A stretch of 20,000 nucleotides of DNA, from IMG/VR virus record IMGVR_UViG_3300021138_000015; one strand, 5' to 3'. The translations under genes were made by a program, and so were the position numbers. The notes beneath the pieces are model-generated. The model did no database searches and was not told the DNA's origin. It was given only the letters and a program-made list of their open reading frames with translations. Shown piece after piece: positions 10,558 through 12,416 of the stretch (its first letter is position 1; each line of letters starts with the position of its first letter). This DNA is from an uncultured virus (IMG/VR IMGVR_UViG_3300021138_000015). Taxonomy: Duplodnaviria > Heunggongvirae > Uroviricota > Caudoviricetes.

Positions 10558-10992
10558 ATGACATGGCTTTACGAAAATACCACAATCGAGTCCTTGCCCG
10601 AGGACTGTGTCGGTTTTGTTTATTTAATTACTAATAAACAGACCGGCAGACAGTACGTTGGAAAAAAACTGGCAAAATTTAGCAGGACCACTTATCGTAT
10701 GGTAAAATTAAAAAACGGTAACAAACGAAAGAAAAAGATTAGAAGTAAAATTGACAGTGATTGGCAGGAGTATTGGTCTAGTTCAGATGAACTTAAAAAA
10801 GATATAGCGTCGCTCGGGCAGGAAAATTTTACAAGAGAAATATTATTTTATTGTAAAAGTAAAGCAGAATGCACATACAGAGAGGCACAAGAGCAGTTTG
10901 CAAGAAAAGTGTTAGAGTCAGATGATTATTATAACGGACAAATAAGTTGCAGGATACACAAAAGTCACATCAATGGTAAACTTAATAAATAA
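10558..10992 (+). CDS. Small stand-alone GIY-YIG nuclease (T4 endonuclease II/DenA-like)
   Basis: GFVYLITN...QYVGKK, DW..Y.SS, FTREIL, E..EQF and terminal YYN motifs. It has a very basic insertion (RMVKLKNGNKRKKKIRSK). Confidence 0.75.
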   Translation: MTWLYENTTIESLPEDCVGFVYLITNKQTGRQYVGKKLAKFSRTTYRMVKLKNGNKRKKKIRSKIDSDWQEYWSSSDELKKDIASLGQENFTREILFYCKSKAECTYREAQEQFARKVLESDDYYNGQISCRIHKSHINGKLNK

Positions 10993-11053
10993 AAATGCCG
11001 ATCGCGACCTGGCAGGGTCCATCAGCTCTAACAGTTTACAAGGAACTATCAGC
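10984..11053 (+). promoter_or_regulatory. Late-like promoter AATAAATA plus structured 5' leader and Shine-Dalgarno of the homing endonuclease
   Basis: AATAAATA at 10984-10991; hairpin GACCT-GGCA-GGGTC (GNRA loop) at 11006-11019, enclosed by GCCGAT/ATCAGC; AAGGA Shine-Dalgarno at 11040-11044. Confidence 0.6.
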
Positions 11054-11701
11054 ATGACTATTTATTTGTACCTTAAGACCCACAACAAAACAGGATTAAA
11101 ATATCTTGGCAAGACTATTTCAAAGGATCCGCATTCGTATCAAGGCTCGGGCACTGTTTGGAAGCGTCACATTAAAAAACACGGTTACGATGTAACTACT
11201 GAAATTTTGCTTGAAACAAACGATCCAACCGAACTTAAAGAAGTTGGAACACACTATTCAAATTTATGGAATATTGTAGAATCCAAAGATTTTGCTAATA
11301 TAGTCCCCGAAATGGGAGACGGTGGGGCTCAACTGTGGACGATTGAAAGTAGACAAAAAGTATCTAAAGCAAATAAAGGCAGAAAACATTCTGAAGAAGC
11401 AAAAAAGAATTATTCAAAGGCGCAACAAAAACAAGCACAGCATTTAAGTAAAAAATTAAAAGAATATCTATCAATACCAGAAAATTACGAAAAAAGATAT
11501 AATCAACTAACATCAAATTGGAATAATCCAAAGCACCGAGAGAAAATGTCTAAGACAATGTCTTCTCTAAAATGGTGTAACGACGGTGTTAGAAATTACC
11601 GAAGATCTATTATTCCAGACGGAATGGTCGCAGGTAGATTATATCGCCATGGCTCCCATATTAAGAATAAAATAGACACCCAGTCAACAGTAAAAGACTA
11701 G
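11054..11701 (+). CDS. Free-standing GIY-YIG (Seg-like) homing endonuclease with NUMOD3-like DNA-binding region
   Basis: MTIYLYLKTHNKTGLKYLGKT...Y.GSG..W..HIKKHG...N...GDGG catalytic domain, then SKANKGRKHSEEAKK (NUMOD3-like) and KWCNDG. ATG 11054 has a Shine-Dalgarno, whereas the ORF-track start 10973 overlaps the previous gene. Confidence 0.85.
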   Translation: MTIYLYLKTHNKTGLKYLGKTISKDPHSYQGSGTVWKRHIKKHGYDVTTEILLETNDPTELKEVGTHYSNLWNIVESKDFANIVPEMGDGGAQLWTIESRQKVSKANKGRKHSEEAKKNYSKAQQKQAQHLSKKLKEYLSIPENYEKRYNQLTSNWNNPKHREKMSKTMSSLKWCNDGVRNYRRSIIPDGMVAGRLYRHGSHIKNKIDTQSTVKD

Positions 11702-12055
11702 CGCAGGTTAACGTCGTGCGCCCCAAAAACTGGATCTAGGATCGCAGGGCGGGAAGACTCAGCTGTGGTGAGCACTCAATCAGTATCCTTAACAGGACCC
11801 GGATCGCATACGCCTATAAGCGGTTTGATTGTTTGAAAGTATTAGGAACAGGCTAAAAGAGTGGGTAACACCCACACGTACATATTGATGTTAGCGTATT
11901 GATATGTGCCGCCGTCGTATAAAGACGCACTTCGAGGTACCGGACGACCGCCTCTGTAATAGTGTAACGCTAAGTGATTGTGCTACTCGGATGATGCCAA
12001 TTTCATTTTGCCCCTCGAGCGGGCAAAGTGTGACTGATTAATCTGGATGATACAG
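11701..12055 (+). ncRNA. Putative large structured non-coding RNA of unassigned class
   Basis: About ten hand-identified stems, several with G-U pairs that work only on the + strand, and a 7-bp loop-to-distal pseudoknot (TTAGCGT 11891-11897 / ACGCTAA 11967-11973). No ORF of 60 aa or more. Boundaries are approximate. Confidence 0.7.
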
Positions 12056-12079
12056 AAAAGCAAATATAATTAAAAAAAG

Positions 12080-12122
12080 ATTTCTGAACGAAGTGAAAGA
12101 AATAGATTAACGAAGTTAATCT
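12080..12122 (+). other. Two tandem hairpins with C(GAA)G loops after an A/T-rich tract
   Basis: ATTTCT-GA-AC-GAA-GT-GAA-AGAAAT (12080-12103) and perfect AGATTAAC-GAA-GTTAATCT (12104-12122). They could also act as a terminator for the minus-strand gene, since a T7 run follows on that strand. Confidence 0.6.
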
Positions 12123-12182
12123 CTGAATCAGAAGATAATATAATCAAATAACTATACTATCCTCTGACGCATTGACGGTATA

Positions 12183-12416
12183 TTACTTGCTTCTCCAAAT
12201 ACTATACAATACCCAAACTGCTACTAATCCGATTAGTCCTTGAGCACTTAGACCTGCTAGAGCGGCAGAAACATTACCGATCACAGATGTTGCTGGGAAA
12301 AAAGGAATAGCAACTCCTTTAAAAAGAATCTCTAGTACAATACCTAAAGCTATTAAACTAACACCTACATCAGCTAGTTGGCTAGCCCAAGTTTTAACTG
12401 TCTTAAGAACATCCAT
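12183..12416 (-). CDS. Small integral membrane protein (2-3 hydrophobic segments), function unknown
   Basis: 77 aa, hydrophobic. Strong AAAGGAG Shine-Dalgarno, upstream CTTAAATA box (12459-12466) and an 8-bp hairpin (12435-12455). Confidence 0.75.
   Translation of the reverse strand: MDVLKTVKTWASQLADVGVSLIALGIVLEILFKGVAIPFFPATSVIGNVSAALAGLSAQGLIGLVAVWVLYSIWRSK

Follow-up and report, generated by a model that had tools for sequence, protein, structure and literature searches.

The 20,000-nucleotide (nt) stretch analyzed here (the window), which derives from an uncultured member of the Caudoviricetes (IMG/VR record IMGVR_UViG_3300021138_000015), harbors on its plus strand a single-copy, large, pseudoknotted RNA gene that occupies positions 11,686 to 12,053, is followed by trailing hairpins up to position 12,122, and represents the full-length form of the Rfam motif Polynucleobacter-1. 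There is little doubt that this tract is a functional RNA gene. Toward its 3′ edge, it carries two unpaired segments whose letters vary between lineages and are, in nearly all aligned copies, identical to each other. The wider statement, in which this RNA gene specifies a trans-acting scaffold programmed by the twin segments, is advanced tentatively, as one possibility rather than as the expected outcome.

Identity and extent of the RNA gene

When the window was scanned against Rfam at curated thresholds, a single match was obtained, RF01718 (Polynucleobacter-1), which covers positions 11,696 to 11,834 of the plus strand over the entire model (1 to 141 of 141; 104.1 bits against a gathering cutoff of 37; E value, 5.8e-22) and corresponds to the 5′ domain (helices P1 to P6). 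A permissive scan of positions 11,500 to 12,300 (E values up to 10) returned no known family over positions 11,835 to 12,055, its four other rows (snoR31, snoR116, cow-rumen-2, and MIR5998) scoring 13 to 21 bits against cutoffs of 44 to 180, and no covariance-model match to GOLLD, ROOL, HEARO, OLE, raiA, or the known self-cleaving ribozymes of Rfam was found in the same interval. An earlier description made from the letters alone (the sequence-only reading) had left the whole tract unassigned, which still applies to positions 11,835 to 12,055 and no longer to positions 11,696 to 11,834. Its statements that transfer RNA, transfer-messenger RNA (tmRNA), RNase P, and group I or II introns could not be recognized were borne out, as ARAGORN predicted 0 genes, no Rfam tmRNA family appeared at E values up to 10, and RF01718 alone passes its threshold between positions 11,500 and 12,300. 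Because approximately 230 nt and two 3′ hairpins belong to no Rfam family, the match removes the novelty of the tract only in part.

In the original report, Polynucleobacter-1 was known from 16 representatives, one of them in RefSeq, at NC_009379.1 2130772-2130906, was rated a probable RNA with a probably cis-regulatory role, and was found in Burkholderiales and in freshwater or estuarine samples (Weinberg et al. 2010, PMC2864571). In the literature searched, it is named only in lists and tables, which nowhere give a function. The published motif (RF01718; PMC2864571) shares helices P1 to P6 and the habitat with the RNA of the window but stops after P4, whereas the full-length unit is 2.5 to 3.5 times as long, being extended by a pseudoknot strand at its 5′ end and, on the 3′ side, by a domain containing two more pseudoknots, the twin segments, and two trailing hairpins. 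Furthermore, most of the copies found here reside in T4-like phages, and the copy in the window lies outside a 5′ untranslated region (UTR).

The conserved core, of approximately 368 nt, was delimited by nhmmer spans and alignment conservation. Its start had been placed at position 11,701; the real start lies approximately 10 nt earlier. AACAGT (11,686 to 11,691) pairs with a loop at 11,762 to 11,766. As had been noted, the tract is richer in GC than its flanks (0.45 to 0.49 across positions 11,575 to 12,024 versus 0.27 to 0.39) and contains no long open reading frame (ORF), the only one being a 45-amino-acid (aa) ORF at positions 11,904 to 12,041. This ORF, which spans P8, the first of the twin repeats, and P12 and has its stop just ahead of the second repeat, is taken as spurious because the indels of relatives do not occur in threes. 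Convergent genes border the tract, a plus-strand ORF (10,973 to 11,701) ending inside it and a minus-strand gene (12,183 to 12,416) following it. A weak sigma-70-like promoter match, TCGCCA-18-TAAAAT (11,644 to 11,673, plus strand), ends approximately 13 nt 5′ of the conserved RNA; with seven such matches in 2.2 kb against 7.2 expected, it is not significant by itself.

Fold and covariation

A total of 18 helices comprising 88 base pairs were set up from RNAalifold, a helix scan, and mutual information and were counted on a MAFFT alignment, not structure guided, of the window with those 66 of 91 distinct viral loci that had at least 15 nt on both sides. Standard pairs occupy 89.3% of cells, compared to 76.2% in shuffled alignments and 36 to 45% when the pairing partners were slid. 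Changes on both sides were observed for 63 of the 88 pairs (49.9 when shuffled and 26 to 33 when slid) and in 752 cells (224 and 107 to 151, respectively), and the observed covariation values were reached by none of 500 shuffles. In the helices of RF01718 (helices 3 to 9), 95.9 to 100% of cells are paired, and changes affect both sides in 21 of 32 pairs.

Three long-range pseudoknots and a weaker fourth tie the fold together. PK0 joins positions 11,687 to 11,691 to the P3 loop (11,762 to 11,766), with three of five pairs changing on both sides and 87% pairing, and recurs in bacterial copies as ACUACUG/CAGUAG. PK1, the best-supported helix after P1, joins UUAGCGU in the P8 loop (11,891 to 11,897) to ACGCUAA (11,967 to 11,973), with 7 of 7 pairs covarying and 96% pairing, and covaries in bacterial copies also, as GCACUUY with RAAGUGC. 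PK2 joins positions 11,914 to 11,918 to the P10 loop (11,944 to 11,948), and the weaker pseudoknot, of 3 bp, joins positions 11,696 to 11,698 to positions 11,707 to 11,709. Hairpins P7 (11,861 to 11,875) and P8 (11,878 to 11,909) together show changes on both sides in 17 of 17 pairs, and the most conserved core (11,914 to 11,964) comprises P11 (11,928 to 11,931 with 11,961 to 11,964), P10 (11,934 to 11,938 with 11,950 to 11,954), PK2, and the near-invariant stretch AGGUACCGGAC.ACCGCCUCUGUAA. Hairpin P12 (12,004 to 12,030), located between the twin repeats, folds in every distinct row taken alone, and its low counts on the alignment are attributed to register slips by MAFFT; bacterial copies retain the hairpin with a different sequence. 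All of these elements lie on the plus strand.

Much of this architecture had been anticipated. Nine of the 12 stem elements listed in the sequence-only reading are backed by covariation in the 66 relatives, namely GCGCA/TGCGC, the hairpin at 11,730 to 11,747, CTCA/TGAG, CAATCA/TGATTG with the enclosed TCC/GGA, GTGGG/CCCAC, the 12-bp stem at 11,878 to 11,909, GCACT/AGTGT, GAGG/CCTC, and the stem at 12,004 to 12,030; so is its pseudoknot TTAGCGT/ACGCTAA, all seven pairs of which change on both sides. Three small hairpins did not survive: CGC-CTATAA-GCG gives way to GATCGC/GCGGTT (11,802 to 11,807 with 11,820 to 11,825), and CGTC/GACG and CGG-ACGA-CCG give way to the pseudoknot GTCGT/ACGAC (11,914 to 11,918 with 11,944 to 11,948). 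The view of the tract as a large phage noncoding RNA of the plus strand has held, with conservation in approximately 100 viral contigs, covariation, G-U pairs, and pseudoknots all in its favor, while the roles suggested along with it (a ribozyme-like element, a protein scaffold, or a replication primer RNA) are conjectural.

Could the conservation instead reflect protein coding or sites acting at the DNA level? The 45-aa ORF, metatranscriptome contig sets that show no transcript over the tract, and a folding energy no better than that of shuffled sequences could be cited in support of such an explanation. It is nonetheless scarcely credible when set against compensatory changes in 63 of 88 pairs, pseudoknots included, indels that do not occur in threes, a unit between the repeats that takes every length from 47 to 63 nt, and a covariance-model score of 104 bits.

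Two hairpins trail the conserved core on the plus strand. H2 (12,080 to 12,103), defined from phage loci and bacterial copies, has the form stem-GA-(AC-GAA-GU)-GAA-stem in the window and stem-GA-GC-GNRA-GC-GAA-stem in relatives. A conserved internal loop, formed by GA on the 5′ strand and GAA on the 3′ strand, surrounds a 2-bp, GNRA-capped stem, and UGAGCG-NNN-GCGAA, which belongs to no Rfam family, occurs in H2 of most phage and bacterial copies; H2 may represent a protein-binding or kink-like module. H3 (12,104 to 12,122), a possible transcript end, is a perfect 8-bp stem with a C(GAA)G loop, which reads C(GNA)G across relatives, and its stems vary between loci and remain complementary. Many (uncounted) phage loci possess a late-promoter-like motif, TATAAATA, between H3 and the next gene.

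Distribution in viral loci

A scan of IMG/VR with a 16-base pattern from the 5′ domain yielded at least 120 viral loci. A query comprising positions 11,696 to 12,055 of the window was then run with nhmmer on 121 listed loci and matched 107 of the 121, with 94 of the 107 matches covering the whole query of approximately 360 nt. Of the 13 partial matches, 11 are truncated where the available sequence stops and two are divergent, and none of the listed viral loci with room for it possesses the 5′ domain without the 3′ part. Conservation in the alignment extends from approximately position 11,686 to position 12,053 and drops directly thereafter, i.e., after the second repeat; the most invariant stretches are CUGGA..UC.CAGGGA.GGAA and the core stretch given above. 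The RNA is single copy in each of five phage records, and a blastn search of GenBank phages with the tract returned no match. On sequence grounds, the Polynucleobacter-1 family is an inhabitant of freshwater T4-like phages.

Twin identical segments

Repeat 1 (11,985 to 11,995, plus strand), which is single stranded and located just 5′ of P12, reads ACUC followed by the seven-nucleotide segment (N7) GGAUGAU, and repeat 2 (12,041 to 12,051, plus strand), at the 3′ edge of the conserved block, reads AUCU followed by the same N7, both being defined on the alignment. Mutual information revealed column pairs that carry the same, rather than complementary, letters (11,989/12,045, 11,990/12,046, 11,993/12,049, and 11,995/12,051) in 61 of 61 main-family sequences. 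The N7 is equal between the repeats in 64 of the 67 alignment rows, with 10 haplotypes; the remaining three rows form one divergent clade, with CGACAGG and UGACAAG, and another divergent phage copy carries AGAUGAA in both repeats. The repeats are spaced 47 to 63 nt apart and, since every length within this range was found, nothing is read in threes between them. When the complement of the N7 was sought in cis, from 150 nt upstream to 260 nt downstream of the RNA with G-U pairs allowed, 0.43 sites per locus were found for the locus's own haplotype and 0.43 for foreign ones.

Several candidate roles were considered and rejected. A helix between the N7 and the invariant UGUUUGA (11,830 to 11,836) would require G-U-tolerant pairing, exhibits no compensation, and overlaps P4; the P10 loop, viewed as a third covarying copy, showed no association; and a promoter motif was discounted, the pattern not being spread across the 20-kb window. 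Phage N7 segments always consist of a sense codon plus UGA or UAA, with AUG kept. A start/stop or hop signal was dismissed because the corresponding eight-nucleotide segments (N8) of bacterial copies (AUCGAAAG and others) contain neither a stop nor AUG and no ORF leads in, while translational bypass of the T4 gene 60 type is contradicted by the lack of a conserved ORF into repeat 1, by spacer indels of 1 to 3 nt, and by the stop-free bacterial N8.

A self-processing RNA, or a processing substrate, might account for the twins if cutting or skipping at the two sites freed or removed the 47- to 63-nt P12 unit, which might then exist as, e.g., a small RNA or a circle. The base of the hairpin sets the identical sites side by side, conservation stops exactly past repeat 2, and the size, pseudoknots, and invariant single-stranded stretches of the RNA are within ribozyme range. 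This explanation is nevertheless considered improbable, as no Rfam ribozyme family matched at E values up to 10, the twin sites have no complementary guide, none of the metatranscriptome contigs from four runs lies over the RNA, and copying by template jump lacks its enzyme, the reverse transcriptase domain PF00078 (RVT_1) being present in 0 of 5 genomes or records. The noncoding RNA of DRT2 reverse transcriptases, as generally described, is similar in that a unit is bounded by short, identical sequences that a stem brings together; it differs in that no reverse transcriptase occurs in the five genomes and the unit length here is not a multiple of three.

Identity, rather than complementarity, with a site approximately 50 nt downstream is what would be needed if the RNA acted in cis in replication, forming an R-loop in the manner of ColE1 RNA II: the upstream N7 would pair with template DNA at the downstream copy, the persistent hybrid would serve as a primer or a recombination start, and H2 and H3 would act on the displaced strand. 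The recombination-replication genes gp46 and gp47 lie beside the locus, phages share the element with bacterial islands that bear an integrase, and GNRA and GNA loops cap the conserved hairpins H2 and H3. Yet four pseudoknots and long invariant stretches far exceed the needs of a primer, it is not apparent why a transcript that is already complementary to its template would require a second copy, the bacterial copies are chromosomal with no sign of an excising replicon, and no origin is evidenced at the locus; we regard this explanation as unlikely. RNA II, as generally described, is similar in being a long folded transcript in which an upstream segment equals a downstream stretch and could pair with template DNA. 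In contrast to it, the RNA described here has no antisense RNA I, plasmid, or mapped origin, is far more complex in structure, and carries repeats of 7 to 8 nt of varying sequence instead of G runs.

Bacterial copies and their cassette

RF01718 was detected in 5 of 151 genomes of one bacterial order (four above the cutoff; genome sizes of 1.7 to 3.1 Mb), and small Burkholderiales genomes and lake metagenomes hold a version of the RNA of approximately 450 to 500 nt. Under the same model, the 5′ domain scores 104 bits in the phage and 95 and 98 bits in bacteria, and the bacterial 3′ domain is recognizably homologous, with the core AAAAGGAGAC.GC.AAACCGCCCUU, PK1, P12, H2, and H3. A scan of genome contigs with the 16-base phage pattern gave two real loci among the 120 listed, the rest being chance matches. 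Metagenome contigs scanned with the bacterial core provided at least 119 loci, in 116 of which both repeats were located by regular expression.

The twin rule holds in bacteria with other letters, as GAACUC-N8 and GAAUCU-N8. Among the 116 listed loci, the two N8 segments agree at 8 of 8 positions in 67, at 7 of 8 in 24, and at 6 of 8 in 17, and the eight loci with agreement at 3 or fewer positions are mis-picks of another AATCT. By a stricter match, the first six N8 positions are equal in 102 listed loci, and the pairs identical at 8 of 8 positions alone represent 14 haplotypes among the listed loci.

The bacterial RNA forms part of a fixed cassette. Upstream of the RNA, 45 of 47 listed metagenome loci with at least 700 nt of room carry a divergent DUF6641 gene; downstream, 30 of 42 with at least 1,800 nt carry a PF00589 tyrosine recombinase gene (188 to 238 aa) on the same strand; and 16 of the 19 listed loci with both flanks contain both genes. 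Between 300 and 1,000 nt separate the RNA from the recombinase start. The cassette genes occur in one orientation only (54 of 54 and 41 of 41), and no part of the cassette is as well conserved at the DNA level as the RNA (210 of 210 locus pairs versus 10 to 50 of 210 for the protein genes). An invertible segment found no support: three inverted repeats approximately 930 to 955 nt apart did not hold in 37 metagenome loci, for which the inverted-repeat score was 9.35, compared to 9.43 for direct and 9.09 for shuffled repeats, a measure in which 9-bp repeats would not stand out. For DUF6641, no fold match was found (best Foldseek E value, 0.11; best VIA Z score, 5.0; model pLDDT, 86.7), a protein atlas search returned DUF6641 clusters only, and the literature searched does not name it. 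A literature search for RNA-associated tyrosine recombinases produced nothing relevant.

The cassette is present in genome contigs at L252:5667-8213, L253:8130-10740, and L254:9292-11350, and the metagenome loci are L255 to L373. One genome (G002) holds two RNA copies 9 kb apart, only one with a recombinase directly downstream. Beside the L253 cassette (L253:11662-17138) are Zorya-like genes encoding an EH_Signature protein and an SNF2 helicase fused to an Mrr nuclease.

The cassette bears on two further explanations. The RNA could be a cis-regulatory, riboswitch-like leader whose fold senses a signal and controls the downstream gene, i.e., the recombinase in bacteria and the next gene in phages. 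The motif was marked as probably cis-regulatory in its description (Weinberg et al. 2010, PMC2864571), 30 of 42 listed bacterial loci have a recombinase gene downstream of the RNA in the same orientation, and H3 resembles a terminator in some loci. However, the next gene in the window (12,183 to 12,416) is convergent, on the minus strand, so that the RNA is not in a 5′ UTR there; many (uncounted) phage loci possess the late-promoter-like motif between H3 and the next gene; the twin segments have no cis partner from which alternative structures could form; and the recombinase begins 300 to 1,000 nt away. A leader function is, on balance, very unlikely.

The second explanation views the bacterial cassette as a mobile-element or defense function of the host that needs the RNA, the phage copy being a decoy that titrates the host protein. 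Phages do carry the RNA without the cassette proteins, the same model gives similar scores to 5′ domains from phages and from bacteria, the cassette occurs only sporadically in bacteria (5 of 151 genomes), and one copy adjoins Zorya-like genes. Conversely, the cassette proteins match no PADLOC model, a defense neighborhood is found at only one of four genome copies, and a decoy would have no need of its own twin identity unless the twins are what is bound. Little probability is assigned to this explanation.

Proposed function

It is proposed that the RNA would act in trans as a folded scaffold, presenting the unpaired ACUC-N7 and AUCU-N7, mutually identical and lineage variable, at the foot of P12. 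Both segments would base pair with one and the same short sequence, carried by two nucleic acid partners or present at two places of one partner, and together they would determine the specificity of a DNA or RNA transaction. For the bacterial RNA, this transaction may be the reaction catalyzed by the neighboring recombinase, a recombination reaction being suggested by the recombinase gene that adjoins the bacterial RNA; the phage, which carries the RNA alone, would use the host enzyme or compete with the host RNA. Any mechanism must explain two unpaired segments that stay identical, lack a cis partner, and are held together at the foot of P12 at the 3′ edge of the RNA, and we think that the most economical reading is that both address one short external sequence. 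A more specific version, in which the RNA would be the programmable subunit of a hitherto undescribed RNA-dependent DNA transaction, the twin segments would pair with the shared core of two DNA partners, the short tyrosine recombinase would join these partners, and the phage RNA would redirect or block the host enzyme, is quite unlikely; this minority reading, with an RNA-programmed recombinase, would be highly interesting if it proved correct.

A number of observations weigh against the scaffold proposal. PF00589 tyrosine recombinase or DUF6641 genes are present in 0 of 5 phage records, two of which are 99 to 100% complete, and no recombinase gene is present in 12 of the 42 listed bacterial loci with room for it. 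The recombinases can be aligned over their full length to invertases of the FimB/FimE type, which function without RNA, and on account of this collinearity their short length needs no RNA partner. At 7 to 8 nt, the segments would make short guides. A search for additional flank-plus-N sites, made with near-exact 7- to 12-mers in phage records and within at most 4 kb of bacterial cassettes, revealed none that stood out. In whole genomes, no such sites stood out clearly: one genome (G002) contains eight extra AAYYYATCGAAW matches outside its two RNA loci against approximately 1.5 expected and 0 for a reversed-pattern control, and another (G052) contains one extra site against three and six in controls. 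The sites in G002 are located at C8:116068, C12:34163, and six other places, with four of the eight reading AATTCATCGAAT. Four contig sets from lake metatranscriptomes cover only positions 12,166 to 12,300 of the window and none lies over the RNA, a result that is not evidence either way. Finally, the folding energy, named at the outset as a criterion for the RNA, equals that of dinucleotide shuffles for the single sequence (minimum free energy z scores of 0.03 for the plus and −0.05 for the minus strand); this value is given little weight because the RNA is pseudoknotted and covariation is ample.

Among known systems, IS110 bridge RNA (seekRNA), compared by its general description only, is similar in being a structured RNA beside a recombinase gene with two unpaired, lineage-variable segments. 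Unlike bridge RNA, the RNA described here neighbors GIY-YIG genes in phages, or DUF6641 and a PF00589 tyrosine recombinase in bacteria, rather than a DEDD-type IS110 transposase; its segments are mutually identical rather than separate target and donor addresses; its phage copies lack a recombinase; and no target or donor DNA was found among the near-exact 7- to 12-mers sought. The HEARO/omega RNA of IscB, OLE, GOLLD, ROOL, and raiA are likewise large, complex, and pseudoknotted, were found by comparative genomics, are partly phage borne, and lie beside a gene for a nucleic acid enzyme; they differ in giving no Rfam match here at E values up to 10, in their neighbor gene, and in that the present RNA has a duplicated 7- to 8-mer and no variable guide at an end.

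Polynucleobacter-1 has been a 141-nt orphan motif of Rfam since 2010, and the present analysis changes the family model: the motif is the 5′ third of an RNA of approximately 370 to 500 nt with three long-range pseudoknots and a fourth of 3 bp, most copies found are phage borne, and the bacterial form is a fixed cassette with DUF6641 and a short tyrosine recombinase. Relative to the literature searched, the full-length architecture, the mainly phage distribution (among the loci listed), the three-part cassette, and the twin-identity rule are new, the 5′ third being known. In size and complexity, the RNA falls within the range of other large RNAs whose discovery preceded their explanation; HEARO, for example, later became the omega RNA of IscB. 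The identity of two unpaired segments over at least two dozen haplotypes is a rare constraint; should the segments address nucleic acids, they would define a new sequence-programmed system and, if not, the RNA would still be a defined target for structure determination and phage genetics.

Phage neighborhood

The window belongs to a T4-like phage, as judged by Pfam matches to a gp47-like phosphoesterase, a gp46-like SMC/AAA protein, a baseplate protein, and a T4 portal protein. A 144-aa gene consisting of a GIY-YIG domain only (10,558 to 10,992, plus strand; PF19835, SegE GIY-YIG domain; E value, 3.7e-33) belongs to a family whose members usually abut the RNA in phages: the homologous ORF, of approximately 141 to 149 aa, generally stops only a few bases away from the RNA (the ORFs that flank 63 phage loci gave 62 BLAST hits). 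In the window, a 242-aa ORF resembling GIY-YIG homing endonucleases (10,973 to 11,701, plus strand) lies between this gene and the RNA, with its stop codon inside the RNA. It has no Pfam match, the GIY-YIG motif being read in its translation, and its last approximately 20 codons (…RHGSHIKNKI…) correspond to the usual C terminus of the 144-aa protein in other loci, whereas the C terminus of the 144-aa gene in the window has diverged. Because its C terminus repeats that of the 144-aa protein, the 242-aa ORF looks like a homing endonuclease insertion at the junction of gene and RNA. Loci L081, L063, L039, and L068 possess ORFs of 266 to 334 aa at the same place.

Members of the 144-aa family occur widely among cultured T4-like phages (356 records). 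A GIY-YIG protein as the partner of the RNA was rejected, since the homologues in Melnitz, ACP17, and cyanophage ACG-2014f are followed by the next gene or by a 149-nt gap, which leaves no room for the RNA; an Rfam scan of the one Melnitz stretch with the 149-nt gap gave no match. Neither GIY-YIG nor gp46 homologues were found at the bacterial loci. Phages and bacterial cassettes share the RNA, which is independent of the GIY-YIG genes. The earlier placement of the tract directly after these genes is correct as a position and fails as a link: the adjacency represents synteny rather than dependence, given that one of the genes is an inserted homing endonuclease and that bacterial copies of the RNA occur without GIY-YIG.

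Beyond the RNA, a gene for a small hydrophobic protein of 77 aa (12,183 to 12,416) is encoded on the minus strand. Six lake metatranscriptome runs contain small shares of the window, and the contigs from four of them show zero differences to the 77-aa gene, indicating that the same phage strain was present in those RNA libraries. These contigs all end between positions 12,166 and 12,182, just beyond the stop codon of the gene, which is probably well expressed.

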